Source of the DNA: Escherichia phage phAPEC8
Strand: one strand, 5' to 3'
DNA length: 64,000 nt
Sequence record: NC_020079.1
Shown: piece by piece, positions 9,401-18,209 of the stretch
Layout of the letters: every line of letters starts with the position of its first letter
Position numbering within the stretch: the first letter of the stretch is position 1
The notes under the pieces: generated by a model
Database searches by the model: none
What the model saw: the letters and a program-made list of their open reading frames with translations, nothing else
Told to the model about the DNA's origin: nothing
Translations under genes and position numbers: made by a program

Positions 9401-12400
9401 ATGGCAACATTCCCAACATATCCAGCAACGTCTCTCGAACAGGGCGTAGACCTGGTTATTTTCTCATCTAACCAACTCCATGATGTTATTAATGGAAGTG
9501 CTACAGAGAGTATTGAAACAGAATCAGGGTTGATACCAACCCTGAGAAAAGCCCTTGTTGACAACTTTTTCTTTAAAAGTCCATTAGATTGGGCGCAAGG
9601 CACAAACGAAACAGTTTTTAACCAACTTCGTTATTTCCAGAACGGGGTGTTGAGTGGTTATTACTATGCGCCTAACGCTACACTGGTAAACCCAATTCCT
9701 ATGCAAGGGACTCCAGTAGGAGATAACAACTGGGTATTGTGGGGACTGAAGACAGAACAACTAGCAACAGAAGTCACCCCTTGGGTATATTCTGGTGCAA
9801 CTGGTTATGAAACAGTAATCAGTCCTCCCTACATCTTTGATAGTGCTATTGTTACGATCAATGGTGTTATTCAGGTTCTGGGAGAAGCTTTCCGCATAGA
9901 AGATAGTAAAATCATCTTATCTGAACCTTTGGGACACGATCCTGCAACAGGACTGCCAAACAAACTTTTTGCCTATATTGGTAAAATCGTAGCTTCCGCA
10001 GATACAGATCCTAACTTAGAAAACCGTCTTGTCAGTTTAGAAACAAAAACTGAAGAACTGACAGAAAGCATGGATAAAGTACCTTTACAAACTATTGCTC
10101 GTAAATACGGTTTGTTGGATGATGAAGTAGCTTACGCAACAGCGGGTCAATCGTTAACAGGGATTAAAGCTCTGTATGATCCAGTAGCACAATCTTCCTA
10201 CACATTGCCTCCTAACATCACAGGGACTTTAACATCCTTGTCTGTTTCTGGAGTAATGACTTATTCTGGCGGATCTGTAGATCTTTCTGCATTGGCTGTT
10301 GAACGTGGACAGTTTGTTCATTTGCCTACAAGCTTTGGTAATAACGTAACTCTGACAGCTAAAAATCAGACGATTGGACGTGGTGCTGGTCGTTATCGTT
10401 GGGCTGGGAGTTTACCAAAAAGTATTTTGGCCTCAGATACATTGGAGACAAGCGGTGGATTAGGTCCAAATGCATGGGTTCTGACCAATACAGAAGGACT
10501 GTTAACCCCTCGTGGTGGAACATACAACGATTTATTCGATGTTGTCTACTTATCAGAATTTGCTAACAACACAACAACATATACCACACCAGAAGCAGCT
10601 TTCCAAGCGGCACTGTTAGCAGCAAAAGCTTCGAAAAGCAAGATTCTCGATGCTTACGGTTGCGATATGACTTTCACGACAAGCTCTTTTGATATTCAAG
10701 GTATCACTTTGCGTGGGGGTGTGTTCCGTGGTCAACGCGACTATCGTGTGCAAAATGCTACAGTAGAAGGCACAACTTTCCGTAACTCTCGTGTTATGTA
10801 TTGGGGTGGTGCTGTGCGCATGTTCGATTGTTTGTGGGACGGTGCTCCTCGCGCAGGTCAAGTTGGTAGCTTGGTATTCCAAGGCAACCCAATATCAGGT
10901 ACTTTTGAAATTGATAACTGTACTTTTAAAAACGGGTTGTATGGCATCCTTCAACAAGGAACAGGGGAACCAGTAACACGTGGTGTCTTCCGTAACCTTA
11001 CCTTCATGGACATGCAAGGTGATGCAATAGAACTGAACGTCATCAATAAACATTATGACGATGGTTGTGTGATTGAGAATATTTACCTGTCTAATATCGA
11101 TGGGACTAACGCTCCTATTCCTCTGTCCAACTGGGGTATCGGTATCGGTGTAGCTGGTAAAGGACCATATGGTTACGGAATCCCTGATGATCAATATTGC
11201 AAGAATATTACAATTCGTAACGTTTTTGCAAAACGTTGTCGTCAGATTGTCCACGTAGAAGTTGGTCGTAATATCTCTATCGAAAACATTCATGGCGATC
11301 CAGACCAGACCGTATCTGTTGGGACAGGTTTGGCAACTGGCGCAGTTGTAATGTATGGAAGTAAAGATTTTACGATTGACGGTGTTTACGGAGAGCCTAA
11401 AACAGACGGTAGCACACTTGCAAGTAATATCCGTATGATTTATTTGGAGTGGGGAACTAACGCAGTTCTGGACGAAGAGGGTAATCCGGTAGTTCCGGCA
11501 CAGGGTAGACCTTCAAACCCATGCTTTAACTATTCTGTTCGTAATATTCACACCAAAACTGGGCGTGTTTTTGCAGGAGTTTCCGCTGGGCCAGGTTATG
11601 AAAACAGAGTTAGCTTTGAAAATATTCGTTGCGCTGCATTGCAGTTATTCGGTATAGCTTCTTGGCTTTCAATGTCTAACATCACCTGTAATATCTTCGA
11701 TTGTGTTGGTCAACCTGAATCTGGTCCAGGGACATTTTATGATGGATTCTTCCGTAGAGAAAAATCTGTTCTTGAAATGGTTAACGTGAACTGTTACCCA
11801 GATGGCAAGACGATGGTTACTGGTCGTCCACAGTGGAGCCGTTGCCGTTACTCGGATATTCATCGTGTCAATTGTAATGTTGAAGCTAATATGTATACCA
11901 ATATCGCAGGTGGTATTGGAGCTATTGTAGGGACAACGGGCAAAGTTTATTACTTAGAGCCTAATCCTAGTCGAAACATTGATGGAATGCATTTCCCAAC
12001 AGGGAAAGAGTTTGACAAAGGTGATATGATAGTCAAGGCGGATAATACGTTCTTCCTTGTAACAACAAGTGGGGCATATATTCCAGATATCCCAGCTTTC
12101 GGTATTCGAGCTACACAGGCAGGAGATACCTTCCTGACACAGAACTTGACTCCTAACGGGACAGCAACAAATGCTTCTTGGTTGTATCATTACCCTCTGT
12201 CAGCAGGGACACGTATCCGTATTCCTGGCGCTGGTGTAGGTGGAGCAGATTTGGACACAGTTATTACTCGTGCACCTTATCAAGATAATGATACGTGGAC
12301 TAACCCAGTTAAAATAGACATTGCAGATCCAATTGTAACGCCTACAAGTGCTGGAGTTAGAATTAAAACCATACCTAATGATTCCAGTAATGTTTCTGTA

Positions 12401-12454
12401 GGTAATACTGCGGTTATTCGCCCAACGCCAGTAGTAGATGTGCCAACAACCTAA
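9401..12454 (+). CDS. Tailspike with probable right-handed beta-helix (depolymerase-like) domain
   Basis: 1017 aa; central region with repeated short beta-strand/turn units rich in N, G, I/V (NIYLSNIDGTN, NITIRNVFAKR, NISIENIHGD) typical of pectate-lyase-fold tailspikes. Confidence 0.5.
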   Translation: MATFPTYPATSLEQGVDLVIFSSNQLHDVINGSATESIETESGLIPTLRKALVDNFFFKSPLDWAQGTNETVFNQLRYFQNGVLSGYYYAPNATLVNPIPMQGTPVGDNNWVLWGLKTEQLATEVTPWVYSGATGYETVISPPYIFDSAIVTINGVIQVLGEAFRIEDSKIILSEPLGHDPATGLPNKLFAYIGKIVASADTDPNLENRLVSLETKTEELTESMDKVPLQTIARKYGLLDDEVAYATAGQSLTGIKALYDPVAQSSYTLPPNITGTLTSLSVSGVMTYSGGSVDLSALAVERGQFVHLPTSFGNNVTLTAKNQTIGRGAGRYRWAGSLPKSILASDTLETSGGLGPNAWVLTNTEGLLTPRGGTYNDLFDVVYLSEFANNTTTYTTPEAAFQAALLAAKASKSKILDAYGCDMTFTTSSFDIQGITLRGGVFRGQRDYRVQNATVEGTTFRNSRVMYWGGAVRMFDCLWDGAPRAGQVGSLVFQGNPISGTFEIDNCTFKNGLYGILQQGTGEPVTRGVFRNLTFMDMQGDAIELNVINKHYDDGCVIENIYLSNIDGTNAPIPLSNWGIGIGVAGKGPYGYGIPDDQYCKNITIRNVFAKRCRQIVHVEVGRNISIENIHGDPDQTVSVGTGLATGAVVMYGSKDFTIDGVYGEPKTDGSTLASNIRMIYLEWGTNAVLDEEGNPVVPAQGRPSNPCFNYSVRNIHTKTGRVFAGVSAGPGYENRVSFENIRCAALQLFGIASWLSMSNITCNIFDCVGQPESGPGTFYDGFFRREKSVLEMVNVNCYPDGKTMVTGRPQWSRCRYSDIHRVNCNVEANMYTNIAGGIGAIVGTTGKVYYLEPNPSRNIDGMHFPTGKEFDKGDMIVKADNTFFLVTTSGAYIPDIPAFGIRATQAGDTFLTQNLTPNGTATNASWLYHYPLSAGTRIRIPGAGVGGADLDTVITRAPYQDNDTWTNPVKIDIADPIVTPTSAGVRIKTIPNDSSNVSVGNTAVIRPTPVVDVPTT

Positions 12455-12460
12455 TGGAAT

Positions 12461-12480
12461 AGAGGGGGGATTCCCCCTCT
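12461..12480 (+). terminator. Hairpin after tailspike gene
   Basis: AGAGGGGG-GATT-CCCCCTCT perfect 8 bp stem; weak U-tract. Confidence 0.35.
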
Positions 12481-12516
12481 TCTTCCAATAGAATGGTCTA
12501 ATGATAGGAGAGATAA

Positions 12517-14541
12517 ATGAATTTAACAAGACCTAATAGTGCGATAGCCGATCTGGTAGAAGCTACTTATCGAAAACGTCGCAGCTTTGAGGCAGGTTTT
12601 ACATTACGTAATTCCCGTGAAGTTTTGCTGTTAGCAGCAGAAGGGAATTATTACCAATGGAAAGGAACTTTTCCTAAAGTTGTTCCAGCAAACTCTACGC
12701 CAGCCACCACAGGTGGTATTTCTTCCCTTGCATGGCAAAGTGTTGGGACCGCTGATGATATAGCAATTATCAATGCCAAGTTTACGGCAATGCAGCAACA
12801 GATTGATGATCTGTCGGAAACAATACCTGAAGCTGGTAAATCGGCTTATCAGATCGCACTTGATAATGGTTTTGTTGGAACAGAAGCACAATGGCTTGCT
12901 TCTTTGAAAGGGGATACTGGTGCTCAACTTAATATTAAAGGATCATTAGCAAGCACTAGTGAACTACCATCCACAGGTAACGTTGCAGGGGATGGTTATA
13001 TCGTAGGTGATGTAATCTACGCTTGGGATGGTTCTGTTTGGAAACTTATTTCTTCTCTTGGGCCAGAAGGTAAATCAGCTTACGAGGTATGGTTGGCAGA
13101 TGGTAATACAGGATCTGTTTATGATTTTCTTACCTCTATAAAAGGTGATAAAGGTGATGTTGGTCCTACAGGGCCACAGGGAGCACCTGGTGTTAACGCC
13201 AACGGTTTTGATTATCGTGGGGATTTGCCTTCTACAAGTAACTTACCACAACCTAACTCTGAAAACGTAAGCCAAGCTTATTCTATCAATGGTAATCTTT
13301 ATGTCTCTAATGGGACAGCTTGGGTCAACATGGGTAATATTGTTGGTCCTCAAGGTCCACAAGGTGAGGCAGGTAAAGACGGTCTTGATGGAACAGATGG
13401 AGATGAAGGGAAATCTGCATATCAAAGTTGGCTGGATGCTGGTAATGAAGGGACAGAAGTAGATTTTATTGCCTCACTTAAAGGTCCAAAAGGAGACAAG
13501 GGTGATCAAGGAGAGCGAGGTCCACAAGGTGAACTAGGTCCACAAGGACCAGTGGGTGCAACAGGATCAGGCTTAGAGATTATCGGGGTTCTGAACAGTG
13601 AAGCTGAACTTCCTCCTACTGGAGAAGTAGGTGATGCATATAAAATTAATAATGATTTGTATGTTTGGATTCAAGATGCTACGGAATGGATGAATGTTGG
13701 CAGTCTTGGAGGAACATCAATTACAGCTAAAGGTCATGTTCCGAACAGTGAAGCTCTCCCTGTTTATAATAACTATGGCGATGCCTACTTAACTGAAGAC
13801 ACCAGTAATCTTTACATCTATACCTACGATCAAGACACCAATTCCGCATCTTTTGTTGACATGGGAAGTATTAAAGGCGACAAAGGTGAAAAAGGGGATA
13901 AAGGGGATAAGGGTGATCCTGGAACAAATGGAACCAACGGTACTGATGGGACCAACGGTAAGGACGGCGCACAGTGGTTTGTAGCAACAACTAATCCAGT
14001 CGCAGGAGACGGTGTTATCAATGATTACGCCTTCAATACTACCACTGGAGCAGTGTTTAAGAAAACAGATTCTTCTACGTGGACACTTATAGGAACTCTT
14101 CCTAGTATACCAGAAGCCCCTCAAGACGGCTTGACGTATGGTCGTTCTGATGGAAACTGGATCGAAATATCAGGATCAGATCCTACAGAAGCTATAACAC
14201 CAACTAGAGTTACAGCAGGTTTCATGGAACTTGAAACAACTACTGCCAACTCTGGAGCATCTTGGACTCCTTCTGGAACTTCCAATATGTATGTTGTTAC
14301 AGTAACTGATGCTCTGACAGTTGGAGCATGGCCTGGTGTCACTGGCTCTACAAAACCTAAAGCGTTTTCAGCAATGATTTATTTGATTCAAGATACAACG
14401 GGACACACGGTTACACTAGATGCGTCTTATGGAGCACTAAATGATACAGAAATAGCAACTACTGCTAACGCAGTAACAATTTTGCAATTAACGTATCCTG
14501 GTGTGGGTGATATCGTGGACATGGTTGTTGTAACACGATAA
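12517..14541 (+). CDS. Collagen-like repeat tail fibre protein
   Basis: 674 aa with several Gly-X-Y runs (GDKGDVGPTGPQGAPG; GPQGPQGEAGKDGLDGTDGDEG; GPKGDKGDQGERGPQGELGPQGPVGATG; GDKGEKGDKGDKGDPGTNGTNGTDGTNGKDG). Confidence 0.65.
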   Translation: MNLTRPNSAIADLVEATYRKRRSFEAGFTLRNSREVLLLAAEGNYYQWKGTFPKVVPANSTPATTGGISSLAWQSVGTADDIAIINAKFTAMQQQIDDLSETIPEAGKSAYQIALDNGFVGTEAQWLASLKGDTGAQLNIKGSLASTSELPSTGNVAGDGYIVGDVIYAWDGSVWKLISSLGPEGKSAYEVWLADGNTGSVYDFLTSIKGDKGDVGPTGPQGAPGVNANGFDYRGDLPSTSNLPQPNSENVSQAYSINGNLYVSNGTAWVNMGNIVGPQGPQGEAGKDGLDGTDGDEGKSAYQSWLDAGNEGTEVDFIASLKGPKGDKGDQGERGPQGELGPQGPVGATGSGLEIIGVLNSEAELPPTGEVGDAYKINNDLYVWIQDATEWMNVGSLGGTSITAKGHVPNSEALPVYNNYGDAYLTEDTSNLYIYTYDQDTNSASFVDMGSIKGDKGEKGDKGDKGDPGTNGTNGTDGTNGKDGAQWFVATTNPVAGDGVINDYAFNTTTGAVFKKTDSSTWTLIGTLPSIPEAPQDGLTYGRSDGNWIEISGSDPTEAITPTRVTAGFMELETTTANSGASWTPSGTSNMYVVTVTDALTVGAWPGVTGSTKPKAFSAMIYLIQDTTGHTVTLDASYGALNDTEIATTANAVTILQLTYPGVGDIVDMVVVTR

Positions 14542-14544
14542 CAG

Positions 14545-14569
14545 AAGCCCCGAAAGGGGCTTTCTTTTT
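14545..14569 (+). terminator. Rho-independent terminator
   Basis: AAGCCCC-GAAA-GGGGCTT followed by TCTTTTT, directly after the fibre stop. Confidence 0.6.
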
Positions 14570-14582
14570 ATGGAGGGTTTAA

Positions 14583-17258
14583 ATGTTTCCAATTCCAATA
14601 TTTACTATTATGACCAGCACTGGTGTCGTTCCTCTGCCAGCAGGTATTGTTAAAAAAGTAATCACTTTAGATTACCCAGATAATGCTGGTAATTCTAACA
14701 GCAGTTTAGCAATTTTGCTTAATGATGGTAGATTGTTTACTCAAGGCGCAAACCTTTTTGGTGAGATTGCAGATGGAACTCGTAGTGCACGATTCAATAA
14801 TTTCCACTTAGCTTCTACTGTAGTAGCGGATGTGTTTACCGCAGATCGTTGTTTTGTTATTAAAACTAACAGTGGGGGATGGCAATATTCAGGATTGACA
14901 GCAGGATTGGTAGGATCTATAGCAGCAGGTGGTACGGACGCATGTGTAACTACTTGGACCAGCTTTCCATCTGTAATAACAGGGACTATCTCTTTAGCCA
15001 ATCTTAAAGAGGTTAAGGGAGGATATAACAACACTCTCTGGTTAATGAATAGTGGTGTTCTTTACGGATCTGGTCAAAACACAGTAGGCAGTTTAGGTGC
15101 AAGTACTACTAACGAAGTTTCTACTCCTCGTCAGATAACAAGTGCAGCAGTTGCTTTTGATGCAGGTTACAACCAATGCTCTTATGTCAACAATGTGGGA
15201 ACCTTGCGTGTTTGTGGAGCTAGTAAAGGTTTAGCAGGTAATAATAACACAACAACAGCTTTTGTCAATGCCAAGATATCCGCTACTGAAACAGTGTATG
15301 TCAAAGATTACATCAATACAGTTTCCCAGACAATAGTTGTAGGAGATACCTCCGGTGGCACGGGTGCAGTAAACTACTTATATGTTAGATCTAATACAGA
15401 AACAACCTACACTAAACTGGATACCTTTGCAGCAGGTTTCTCAACATGGAAATTTCCACCAAGCCGCCACTCTTTTTTCGTTGGGATCAATAATTCCTTG
15501 TGGGCTATTGGTAAGAACTACACTGCAAACTTAGGTTTGGGGTATGATTCTGCGAGCGGAGATCCACTTCAAGTGGGAAAACCAGTTAAACCTGAAGGAG
15601 TGGGTTCCTGGGATATAAACAAGCTCACAAGCGTTCATACGCTGAATATGGATGTTACTAACCAATTAGGTTATCAAGGAACCTTTTTCGTTTATAATGG
15701 AGATATGTATTATTCCGGTATTTGGAAAGATGGAAAAGCCTCGTATCTGTTCAATAGTGGTCTAAACTATAATAAATTCACACCAATAGCAAGCTCCGTG
15801 ATTACGGGTGATATTCTGGCAACTGGCTTAACTACGGATTCTTTAGGAATTTGTATTGTAGGTGGAACTAAACAGTTGACACATTCTGTTAGCCCAGAAG
15901 GAGGTAAACTTTTCAATATTAAATATACTTCTTCTGCCCCTGCAAACATGACAATATCGTCTACTGGTTTAATGACTTTCCATGCAGAAGGTGGTTTTGA
16001 TGCAGGTATGACAGCCTTAAACGCTGAAGGAACAACTTTATCAGATACCTCTGGAGGATATGCTTCAACATTGAGTGTTTACACCCCTAGCTTATCTGCG
16101 ATGGATGTAGGAACAACACAAACAATGGTAGCAGAAATAACGCCAACAGGAGCAGCAAGCTTACCTGGCATGGTTGTTGAGTATTTCTCTAATGACCCTA
16201 CGGTAGCAACAGTTGACCCCGTTACAGGCGTTATTACAGCGGTTGCTGATGGAGGTTGTCGTATCGGTTGTAGAGCAACTTATCAAGGTGTGGTAACTGC
16301 CGAAGATAGTTCTTATCTCACAGTGAATGCTGTGGTGATTGTGATGGATTATGATTTGACGCAAGAAACTATTCCGGCGGATGTAAAGGTCAACAGGAGT
16401 AACCGTTATGCCAGGGCTTCTGGAGATATCCTTGTACCTACAGAGAGTTCTGCTCCCGTAGCACCTTTAGAATATGTTGGTACAACTCCACAAGGTAGAC
16501 GTGTTGTAGCAGCCAACCGTACACATATCTTTATCAACAATAACTTGACAACAGCTTCCCCGTGGTTGAAGACGAACTTGACAGTCACAGCATCAACAAT
16601 CAACTCTCCGGTTGGAACTACGGCTAACACTTACAAGTTAACACCTTCTACAACTTCAGGACAACATATTTTATCAGCAGTGAATACAGCTTCTGATATT
16701 ACAGCAGGTAAGCACTGGGCGGCATCCGTATTCTTGAAGCCAGATGGGATCACTAAAGTGAAACTCAAATTGACTTCAGGAGATGAGATTAACGAAGGGA
16801 CTTATGATCTTGTAGCTGGAACATTTACAGGTGCAGATGCAAACATAATCGATATGGGGAATGGTTGGTATCGTGTAATTCTACACAAAGTGACAGTTGC
16901 CAAACAAGCATCTATAACCTATGAGATTATAGCTTTGAATGCAAGTGGATCAGACACTTTCGCAGGAGATGGTACGGCAGGTCTTATTGCTTGGGTTCCA
17001 CAGCTTGAGATGGGGGATATGACAAATCCAGTTTGGGCGGGGACACCATTTGTTTGTTCTTATGCACGAGACACTACCAGTGCTGTTACCTTCACTATTC
17101 CTAAGAATGGACATACTGGCGTGGACATTTACCACACTGATGGTACTGTGCAACGAGAGGTCTTCACTGGTACAGCTACAACTTGGATGTTGACGTTCAC
17201 CGCCGCAAGTGCGGATTGGGGATCGAAGTTCATTACAGGTTTGAAATATTACGACTAA
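14583..17258 (+). CDS. Large virion protein with bacterial Ig-like domain(s)
   Basis: 891 aa; T/S/G-rich; segment MVVEYFSNDPTVATVDPVTGVITAVADGGCRIGCRATYQGVVTAEDSSYLTVNAV resembles a Big_2-type Ig-like fold. Confidence 0.45.
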   Translation: MFPIPIFTIMTSTGVVPLPAGIVKKVITLDYPDNAGNSNSSLAILLNDGRLFTQGANLFGEIADGTRSARFNNFHLASTVVADVFTADRCFVIKTNSGGWQYSGLTAGLVGSIAAGGTDACVTTWTSFPSVITGTISLANLKEVKGGYNNTLWLMNSGVLYGSGQNTVGSLGASTTNEVSTPRQITSAAVAFDAGYNQCSYVNNVGTLRVCGASKGLAGNNNTTTAFVNAKISATETVYVKDYINTVSQTIVVGDTSGGTGAVNYLYVRSNTETTYTKLDTFAAGFSTWKFPPSRHSFFVGINNSLWAIGKNYTANLGLGYDSASGDPLQVGKPVKPEGVGSWDINKLTSVHTLNMDVTNQLGYQGTFFVYNGDMYYSGIWKDGKASYLFNSGLNYNKFTPIASSVITGDILATGLTTDSLGICIVGGTKQLTHSVSPEGGKLFNIKYTSSAPANMTISSTGLMTFHAEGGFDAGMTALNAEGTTLSDTSGGYASTLSVYTPSLSAMDVGTTQTMVAEITPTGAASLPGMVVEYFSNDPTVATVDPVTGVITAVADGGCRIGCRATYQGVVTAEDSSYLTVNAVVIVMDYDLTQETIPADVKVNRSNRYARASGDILVPTESSAPVAPLEYVGTTPQGRRVVAANRTHIFINNNLTTASPWLKTNLTVTASTINSPVGTTANTYKLTPSTTSGQHILSAVNTASDITAGKHWAASVFLKPDGITKVKLKLTSGDEINEGTYDLVAGTFTGADANIIDMGNGWYRVILHKVTVAKQASITYEIIALNASGSDTFAGDGTAGLIAWVPQLEMGDMTNPVWAGTPFVCSYARDTTSAVTFTIPKNGHTGVDIYHTDGTVQREVFTGTATTWMLTFTAASADWGSKFITGLKYYD

Positions 17259-17261
17259 TAA

Positions 17262-17295
17262 AAAAGGGAACCCGCAAAGGTTCCCTTTTCTTTTA
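17262..17295. terminator. Bidirectional intrinsic terminator between convergent modules
   Basis: AAAAGGGAACC-CGCAAA-GGTTCCCTTTT flanked by A-run and T-run; lies between the last + strand structural gene and the first - strand gene. Confidence 0.6.
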
Positions 17296-17321
17296 TAAAA
17301 ACTCTTTATAAATCAATAAGA

Positions 17322-18209
17322 TTAGAATGGGATATCATCGTCGAAGTCCATTGGAGGTTCTTCTTGATTGCTTGGAGTTGGTTCTGGTTGTGGTTCAGGT
17401 TTCTTCTCTTCTTTCTTCTCTTCTTTCTTAGGTTGTTCTGCGGAACCACGAATGGCAGCAGCAACTTTATCAGACAGAGCCAGAACTTTACGAGCAGAGT
17501 CAATCAGATCTTCTACAGATACAGTCTTAATGGTATGGTCTTTACAAGCATTGAGAATAGCGTGACCAACAGATGCCCCAAGATCATAATCATTAATATC
17601 AACGCCACGAGATTCAGCAATTTCAGATTTCAGCGTGACAGTTGCAGATTGAACAACCCCAGCGATATCGAAAGCATCGCCTTTAACACCATTACGAATC
17701 AGTTCCAGTGCACCATTTACTGCGTGACCAGTTTCCAGACCTACAGTATCACGTTTTTTATAGGACTGCTTAGGAGCAGCATCGTTGGAACCTTTATTGC
17801 CAGAAGATTTGTTAGACTTCTGAACACCATCGGTAGACAATACTGTAATACGAGATTTTTTAGTATTGTAGTAAGTCTTACCGCCTTTATTATCAACGCG
17901 ATCAATATCAATACTTACTTCTACACCTTTTTCAATAGTGATCCAATTATCACCTTCTTTGACTTGCAGGTTTTCATAACCTTCTTTCAGTTCAATGTCA
18001 CCAAGAGAAATCCAAACACCTTTCTCATCTGGTTTAGCACCTTTCTCTTTCAGAACAAGAGAAGCTCGGTGAGTTGAAACAATCGTTTTCCCTTCCCAAT
18101 GAAAAGTTTTAGGTTCAGCGAATTTATCCAGTTTAACGTAGTCTACGATACCAGTTGCATAAGTTACGGTTTTGCCTTTACGATCAGTTTCAGTATTAAT
18201 TACGGACAT
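17322..18209 (-). CDS. ssDNA-binding protein candidate with acidic C-terminal tail
   Basis: 295 aa; Lys/Glu/Pro-rich linker then C-terminus MDFDDDIPF identical in character to the bacterial SSB tail tip; adjacent to replication genes. Confidence 0.5.
   Translation of the reverse strand: MSVINTETDRKGKTVTYATGIVDYVKLDKFAEPKTFHWEGKTIVSTHRASLVLKEKGAKPDEKGVWISLGDIELKEGYENLQVKEGDNWITIEKGVEVSIDIDRVDNKGGKTYYNTKKSRITVLSTDGVQKSNKSSGNKGSNDAAPKQSYKKRDTVGLETGHAVNGALELIRNGVKGDAFDIAGVVQSATVTLKSEIAESRGVDINDYDLGASVGHAILNACKDHTIKTVSVEDLIDSARKVLALSDKVAAAIRGSAEQPKKEEKKEEKKPEPQPEPTPSNQEEPPMDFDDDIPF

Follow-up and report, generated by a model that had tools for sequence, protein, structure and literature searches.

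Collagen-like Gly-X-Y tracts in a modular tail fibre of Escherichia phage phAPEC8

Short Gly-X-Y runs in a phage tail fibre raise the question of whether they are genuine collagen-type triple helices, what they contribute to the fibre, and how they change in length. We address this question for the gene at positions 12517-14541 of a 64,000-nucleotide stretch of Escherichia phage phAPEC8 (NC_020079.1), hereafter the window. An earlier, sequence-only reading had described four separate runs of up to about 30 residues in an otherwise globular fibre protein, and had proposed that they act as flexible, triple-helical spacers prone to length variation by recombination. The runs themselves are as described: the open reading frame (ORF) holds 5, 7, 9 and 10 uninterrupted triplets, and the longest tracts span 28 and 31 residues. 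The description of the remainder as globular was mistaken: the rest of the protein is a chain of short repeated modules, here termed A motifs and B modules. Our overall interpretation, which we regard as probable, is that the gene product is a homotrimeric side tail fibre of Phapecoctavirus and the counterpart of phi92 gp151. The gene and its tracts, with positions given in the window, are as follows.

12517-14541, + strand: tail fibre gene with an ATG start, 674 amino acids plus stop; orthologue of phi92 gp151 and of 'TfpM2'
13144-13191, + strand: collagen-like tract 1, residues 210-225, GDKGDVGPTGPQGAPG, five triplets; length invariant in orthologues
13345-13410, + strand: collagen-like tract 2, residues 277-298, seven triplets; 13-31 residues in orthologues
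13483-13566, + strand: collagen-like tract 3, residues 323-350, nine triplets; 22-28 residues in orthologues
13876-13968, + strand: collagen-like tract 4, residues 454-484, ten triplets; the most variable, 7-37 residues in orthologues, and the site of 9-bp insertions and deletions (indels)

Evidence for and against a triple helix

The tracts stand out from both the protein and its surroundings. When the protein sequence was shuffled 20,000 times, none of the shuffles reached the observed longest run of glycines, and only 460 had as many as five in-register glycines. A six-frame scan of the whole window found no other Gly-X-Y run of four or more triplets. The Pfam family Collagen (PF01391), whose defining repeat is present, matches the protein at 46.4 bits against a cut-off of 27.2, and it was returned by the Pfam scan together with only one other family, Tail_spike_N.

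Several features of these tracts are those of hydroxyproline-free collagens. In a comparison of 13 orthologue clusters, no alignable tract glycine is substituted, and whenever tracts differ in length they do so by a multiple of three residues; the modules from the N terminus through the third A motif (A3) keep a constant length. Over 7,413 triplets of the family, the X position is occupied mainly by proline (30%), aspartate (24%) and glutamate (12%), and the Y position by glutamine (27%), lysine (22%) and threonine (12%). The glycine periodicity is thus under selection, and the X and Y positions have the distinct compositions typical of collagens that lack hydroxyproline. The phAPEC8 protein also contains seven [KR]-G-[DE] motifs; sequences of the K-G-E/D type reportedly stabilise hydroxyproline-free triple helices (Persikov et al. 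2005). Taken together, the conserved glycines, the triplet-only length changes and the distinct X and Y compositions argue for a real triple helix, and we think it probable that the tracts adopt this structure in a fibre trimer. There is also a precedent: the collagen domain of an E. coli prophage tail fibre has been shown experimentally to form a triple helix, with a melting temperature of 42°C, and its refolding is nucleated by its C-terminal domain (PMC3368898).

Structure prediction sets the tracts apart from the rest of the protein. In an AlphaFold2 (AF2) model of the monomer, exactly the four tracts have a predicted local distance difference test score (pLDDT) below 50 and no secondary structure, whereas the N-terminal domain, the A motifs, the B modules, a foldon-like hairpin and the C-terminal domain are folded. 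We also modelled a pseudo-trimer, in which three copies of residues 443-553 (the end of B4, tract 4, B5 and the foldon-like motif) were joined by 50-residue GS linkers and folded as a single chain by AF2 with a matched alignment of 18 relatives. It did not assemble, with a mean pLDDT of 44.7 and values of 23-30 in the tract, and is uninformative. Three further points weigh against a triple helix. At 15-30 residues the tracts are short, and they contain little proline (10 of 97 residues); G-T-N/D repeats make up the distal half of tract 4; and the phi92 record labels the central domain of gp151 a predicted coiled coil.

The same observations could be accommodated if the Gly-X-Y stretches were flexible linkers, either disordered or in a single-chain polyproline-II conformation, that tether independently folded modules while other trimeric elements hold the fibre together. 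The length and proline content of the tracts fit such linkers, as do the low pLDDT values, the failure of the pseudo-trimer to assemble and the absence of the usual stabilising residues from the G-T-N/D half of tract 4. However, low pLDDT is to be expected at the tracts because a single chain was modelled, and no model of a monomer could reveal a triple helix anyway. More to the point, a plain linker has no need of glycine at every third position, yet the alignable glycines are invariant, lengths change by threes, and the X and Y positions differ in the manner typical of collagens. Moreover, triple-helical structure has been shown for a related class of collagen in E. coli phage fibres (PMC3368898). 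We therefore consider non-helical linkers unlikely. If the triple-helix reading is correct, the earlier description of the tracts as flexible spacers needs to be divided: they do lie as spacers between modules, but their flexibility is doubtful because a triple helix is a rod. Any flexibility would more plausibly lie at the junctions of the tracts with the A and B modules.

A segmented shaft of A motifs and B modules

From the N to the C terminus the protein consists of an anchor domain, a helix, the series A1-B1-A2-tract1-B2-tract2-A3-tract3-B3-B4-tract4-B5, a foldon-like motif and a beta-sandwich. The parts that flank the tracts were delimited by profile hidden Markov models (HMMs), motif comparison and AF2.

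12550-12747, + strand: N-terminal anchor domain, Tail_spike_N (PF18668), residues 12-77; 70.5 bits against a cut-off of 25
12757-12822, + strand: predicted alpha-helix, residues 81-102 (AF2)
12832-12909, + strand: A1 motif, helix-turn-helix, residues 106-131, GKSAYQIALDNGFVGTEAQWLASLKG (motif comparison and AF2)
12913-13068, + strand: B1 module, four-stranded beta unit, residues 133-184 (HMM, 60.1 bits; AF2 strands with pLDDT of about 80)
13069-13143, + strand: A2 motif, residues 185-209
13192-13344, + strand: B2 module, residues 226-276 (HMM and AF2)
13411-13482, + strand: A3 motif between tracts 2 and 3, residues 299-322
13567-13710, + strand: B3 module, residues 351-398 (HMM and AF2)
13711-13875, + strand: B4 module, residues 399-453 (HMM and AF2)
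13969-14100, + strand: B5 variant module, W-F-V..GD..DY..K-T..W..G, residues 485-528 (AF2)
14101-14172, + strand: foldon-like motif, residues 529-552, IPEAPQDGLTYGRSDGNWIEI
14173-14538, + strand: C-terminal beta-sandwich tip, a phiTE-241-type domain, residues 553-674 (AF2, pLDDT of about 85)

The A motif is 25 residues long, has the pattern GKSAY...WL.SLKG, is predicted to fold as a helix-turn-helix (a helix hairpin) and occurs in three copies. The B module, present in five copies, measures about 50 residues with the pattern LP..G..GD.Y...LY.W.G..W..G and is predicted to form four strands (pLDDT of about 80). Both are common beyond this fibre. In 121 related proteins we counted 691 copies of B and 635 of A, the latter spread over 113 of the proteins, with Gly-X-Y triplets preceding 343 and following 284 of the A copies. 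Searching a library of 1.84 billion proteins with a B profile yielded at least 10,140 matching representatives at 50% identity, with up to 15 copies per protein. We found no Pfam family for either element. Among solved structures, the profile search with B gave only a marginal match to phiKZ gp184 (E-value 7e-4), and the best match of the A motif in the PDB had an E-value of 0.12.

At the DNA level, the A1-coding segment (12828-12927) matches unrelated phages over stretches of 60-100 nt with 78-87% nucleotide identity, among them Acinetobacter TaPaz, Cellulophaga phiST, the phiKZ-like phages PA1C, PhiPA3 and 201phi2-1, and Butyrivibrio Ceridwen. Other phages also yield short matches of this kind to the DNA at the 5' end of tract 4, from about 13870.

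The two ends of the protein can be related to known domains. The anchor belongs to Tail_spike_N by both sequence and fold: sequence searches of the PDB match it to CBA120 TSP1, TSP3 and TSP4, G7C gp63.1 and 9vvr (best E-value 1.8e-13), and a Foldseek search of the PDB with the full AF2 model aligned the same domain with 4qnl, 6nw9, 4oj5 and 5w6h and returned nothing beyond it. The helix that follows is probably a short trimeric coiled coil. At the other end, residues 559-671 match residues 679-790 of the phiTE tail fibre 9cuy_g, its unmodelled C terminus (E-value 4e-8). The corresponding family, PF26209 (Phage_phiTE_241_C), is precomputed on the 99%-identical protein P0001 and on the fibre of phage vB_EcoM_EP57 (EP57), which establishes the homology of the C-terminal domain, and the model was not returned by the Pfam scan of the phAPEC8 protein itself.

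Between the last B module and the tip lies the foldon-like motif. By phmmer this motif matches T4 fibritin foldon chains in the PDB with E-values of about 0.007-0.03, and a profile built from 55 copies in relatives matched the foldon 1rfo with an E-value of 2.5e-9, although this profile is partly circular, because a regular expression modelled on the query was used to collect the copies. The score of the Pfam model Fibritin_C (PF07921) on the motif, 12.5 bits against a cut-off of 21, likewise tells against a firm assignment. More distant relatives carry precomputed PF07921 matches. AF2 places a hairpin at residues 541-550 (strands 541-544 and 547-550) with a pLDDT of only about 52-56. The cassette of tract, B5 and foldon occurs in 46 of the 121 related proteins, and in the orthologue P0011 tract 4 runs straight into the foldon without B5.

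These elements suggest the following architecture. The Tail_spike_N domain would dock the fibre onto a baseplate-borne receptor-binding complex, in the manner of its homologues in the CBA120 and G7C spikes. The shaft would be segmented: after the short helix, the A motifs and B modules would act as small nodes, and the four tracts linking them would be thin, fairly stiff rods that together add about 28 nm (97 tract residues at 0.286 nm per residue). Flanking trimeric elements would keep the three chains in register, most notably the foldon-like hairpin downstream of the last tract, with a role akin to that of the C-terminal nucleation domains of other collagens. The phiTE-type beta-sandwich would form the distal tip and is presumably receptor-binding. 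According to this model, the tracts govern fibre length and spacing, and bending, if any, is confined to the junctions of tracts and modules.

Tract length and possible module exchange

Comparison among relatives gave a two-sided answer to how variable the tracts are: repeat number is nearly fixed within the genus and varies between lineages in tracts 2-4, with tract 1 fixed at 16 residues. Near-full-length copies of the gene are found in 68 phage records, and the 2025-bp span recurs in nearly all of the phage records listed. The counterpart in vB_EcoM_UP17 is 99.7% identical, and in the 90% cluster the length is 674 residues in each of the 14 full-length members read. Nevertheless, two independent single-triplet (9-bp) indels were found among genes about 98.5-99% identical, both of them in tract 4. 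In ASO2A this tract is 9 bp shorter, equivalent to one GTN triplet, and a single AAAGGTGAG unit, equivalent to one GEK triplet, distinguishes phi92 from PD06. The two phi92-type alleles are each carried by several isolates (4 versus 16 among the records listed), and family members of 656 and 653 residues occur on many contigs.

It might be argued that such differences arose as errors of sequencing or assembly in repetitive DNA and that the tracts are truly invariant. Two records do look suspicious in this respect. In SKA64 (OM362897.1) a tandem 76-bp duplication equivalent to 12835-12910 shifts the reading frame of the fibre gene, so that only a 545-residue 3' ORF is annotated; either a genuine mutation or a faulty assembly may lie behind it. 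In EP57 (OR544956.1) an in-frame 486-bp deletion equivalent to 13470-13955 removes tract 3, B3, B4 and most of tract 4 and leaves a 512-residue protein, in a record of 130.7 kb rather than the usual ~150 kb. Neither change is triplet variation, and both may be artefacts. We considered the longer SKA64 gene as a repeat expansion and rejected this, the duplication being out of frame and covering the A1 motif. The EP57 deletion was likewise rejected as recombination between tracts: one of its ends lies in A3, the junction shows no homology, and the record is short. The 9-bp alleles are of a different kind, being in frame and recurring in several independent isolates and assemblies, and the differences between lineages are accompanied by many substitutions. 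An artefactual origin for the length variation as a whole is therefore extremely improbable.

The earlier proposal of length variation by recombination holds for the variation and less well for the mechanism. Exact in-frame DNA repeats within the tracts are 6-12 nt long, with none exceeding 12 nt in any tract, and the period-9 arrays are imperfect. Because the exact repeats are so short, replication slippage on 9-nt units seems a likelier source of length change than homologous recombination. We think it probable that tract length evolves by in-frame gain and loss of 9-bp units, mostly in tract 4, and most likely in this way.

Tract 4 also shows hints of module exchange at the level of protein sequence. 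In more distant relatives (P0015-P0019) the N-terminal shaft is kept through B4, and other modules and C-terminal domains appear after tract 4; this junction was read by inspection, as BLAST mapping of the point where homology ends was blurred by the repeats. One possibility is that the tracts serve mainly an evolutionary role, as in-frame joints for the recombinational swap of distal receptor-binding cassettes, and so give rise to fibre polymorphism. The direct joining of tract 4 to the foldon in P0011 is consistent with this idea, as are the collagen-like linkers found between exchangeable modules in the Tal proteins of Streptococcus thermophilus phages (PMC7533335). On the other hand, short exact repeats and imperfect arrays are a poor substrate for homologous recombination, the swaps are deduced from protein-level mosaics, and the gene is nearly invariant within the genus. 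The single large deletion, that of EP57, is not bounded by tracts on both sides, and no homology is evident where its ends meet. A primarily evolutionary role is, in our estimation, rather improbable, and it could coexist with the structural role that we favour for the tracts as triple-helical rods.

The fibre in its genome and among known systems

The identification of the protein as a tail fibre, as the sequence-only reading had it, is borne out by four lines of evidence: a match to PHROG 15437 'tail fiber protein' (phrog_15437) over residues 1-674 with an E-value of 0, orthology to phi92 gp151, its place after a colanidase spike and its Tail_spike_N anchor. Full-length homology and position together place it among the gp151-type tail fibres of Stephanstirmvirinae (PHROG 15437). 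The genome itself belongs to Phapecoctavirus, the phAPEC8-like E. coli myophages of that subfamily. The gene lies at the end of the structural module, downstream of baseplate and fibre genes. Directly before it is a colanidase-type spike gene, an order shared with phi92 and Mt1B1_P17, and terminator-like hairpins lie on both sides of the fibre gene, the downstream one being:

14544-14573, + strand: terminator-like hairpin with a T-run, directly 3' of the stop codon; a terminator is annotated here in ASO2A

Other features of the neighbourhood can be noted. The spike gene (9401-12454, + strand) encodes a 1017-residue orthologue of the phi92 gp150 colanidase, which contains the same Tail_spike_N motif at residues 302-361, after about 300 extra residues. 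These extra residues at the N terminus are a candidate platform on which the anchor domain of the fibre could dock. Downstream, at 14583-17258 (+ strand), lies a gene for an 891-residue protein with an RCC1-like beta-propeller and Big_2 domains. It is 'TfpM1' of PMC12695924, a protein that this paper reports to be absent from justusliebigviruses, and the phi92 record has a short gp152 in its place. The G+C content is 0.41-0.43 over the spike and fibre genes (10001-18000) versus 0.37-0.40 in most of the window, and the GC skew changes sign near 18,000 and 52,000, where the direction of transcription switches.

Collagen-like segments are an established, ordinary way to build thin trimeric fibres in phages, and the core finding changes little in this regard. 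Its extra interest, which is modest, lies in the natural arrangement of collagen-like tract and foldon-like motif, the abundance of unannotated A and B modules, and, beside the fibre tip, a hotspot of probable triplet slippage. For this family of fibres the picture is corrected: collagen-like tracts are found where the phi92 record has a predicted coiled coil. The A and B modules are abundant enough to merit a family description and a structure. With the boundaries of the A, B, collagen, foldon and tip segments mapped to coordinates, they become usable for engineering; tract 4, a naturally length-variable site beside the presumed receptor-binding end, may be useful for chimeric fibres in therapeutic E. 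coli phages. We raise more tentatively, as a possibility with the balance against it, that the fibre exemplifies a very widespread and undescribed building grammar of phage and virus fibres in which short collagen rods are held between A and B modules that lack a Pfam family, foldon homologues register the last rod, and triplet slippage in the tip-proximal tract tunes reach and host range.

Some records of the gene family already carry names such as "collagen triple helix repeat protein", "lateral tail fiber protein with type I collagen domain" and "collagen-like protein", and fold matches in BFVD are mostly phage tail fibres and viral "collagen-like proteins". In the literature on the phages themselves we found no mention of collagen in Phapecoctavirus or "Wecvirus" fibres, and that on 6X3M (HylP) held nothing on its collagen-like part. 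The closest known relative is gp151 of phi92 (Justusliebigvirus), or 'TfpM2' of the phiWec phages, an orthologue with the same position and module order, about 60% protein identity and four Gly-X-Y tracts. It differs in the length of tracts 2-4, which have 5, 8 and 5 triplets rather than the 7, 9 and 10 found here, and in that its record names the centre a predicted coiled coil and not collagen.

More remote systems share one or another part of the design. The anchor domain is homologous, in sequence and predicted fold, to those of CBA120 TSP1, TSP3 and TSP4 and of G7C gp63.1, but those proteins continue as beta-helix enzymes, whereas the phAPEC8 protein continues as a collagen-containing fibre. 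Gly-X-Y extensions or linkers between globular host-recognition modules are known from the Tal protein of S. thermophilus phages (PMC7533335) and from FibU of staphylococcal phage 80alpha, although the carrier proteins and modules are different and lack A, B and foldon. The streptococcal proteins Scl1 and Scl2 and Legionella Lcl have similar hydroxyproline-free, charge-rich repeats, and their NCBIfam models match the tracts. This resemblance is compositional only: the adhesin models score 61.1, 34.6 and 48.2 bits against cut-offs of 400, 325 and 500, which excludes membership of the Scl and Lcl families, and the fibre lacks an LPXTG anchor and has another context.

Two comparisons bear most directly on the proposed architecture. 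EPclA-D of the E. coli O157 prophages (Ghosh et al. 2012, PMC3368898) likewise have a trimeric Gly-X-Y rod flanked by an N-terminal part for attachment and a C-terminal domain for trimerisation or nucleation, the trimer being our inference in the case of phAPEC8. They differ in having one long collagen domain of about 111 residues together with PfN (PF08400), PCoil and PfC (PF06820), whereas the phAPEC8 fibre has four short tracts amid A and B modules, a foldon-like motif and a phiTE-type tip. The Pfam scan detected no PfN, PCoil, PfC or Pf2 in it, and it is thus not a member of the EPcl group. The T4 fibritin foldon and the engineered collagen-foldon fusions (1RFO, 1NAY, 9GFR) resemble it in a motif of about 22 residues, IPEAP.DG..Y.R.DG.W, which in the fusions, as here, lies C-terminal to Gly-X-Y. 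In T4 the foldon caps a coiled coil and not collagen, and in the phAPEC8 protein B5 intervenes between tract and foldon and a further domain follows. The engineered fusions, of which 1nay and 9gfr are among our PDB matches, use the same arrangement to bring collagen peptides into register, so that the cassette of tract, B5 (absent in P0011) and foldon-like motif would be a natural counterpart of these designs.

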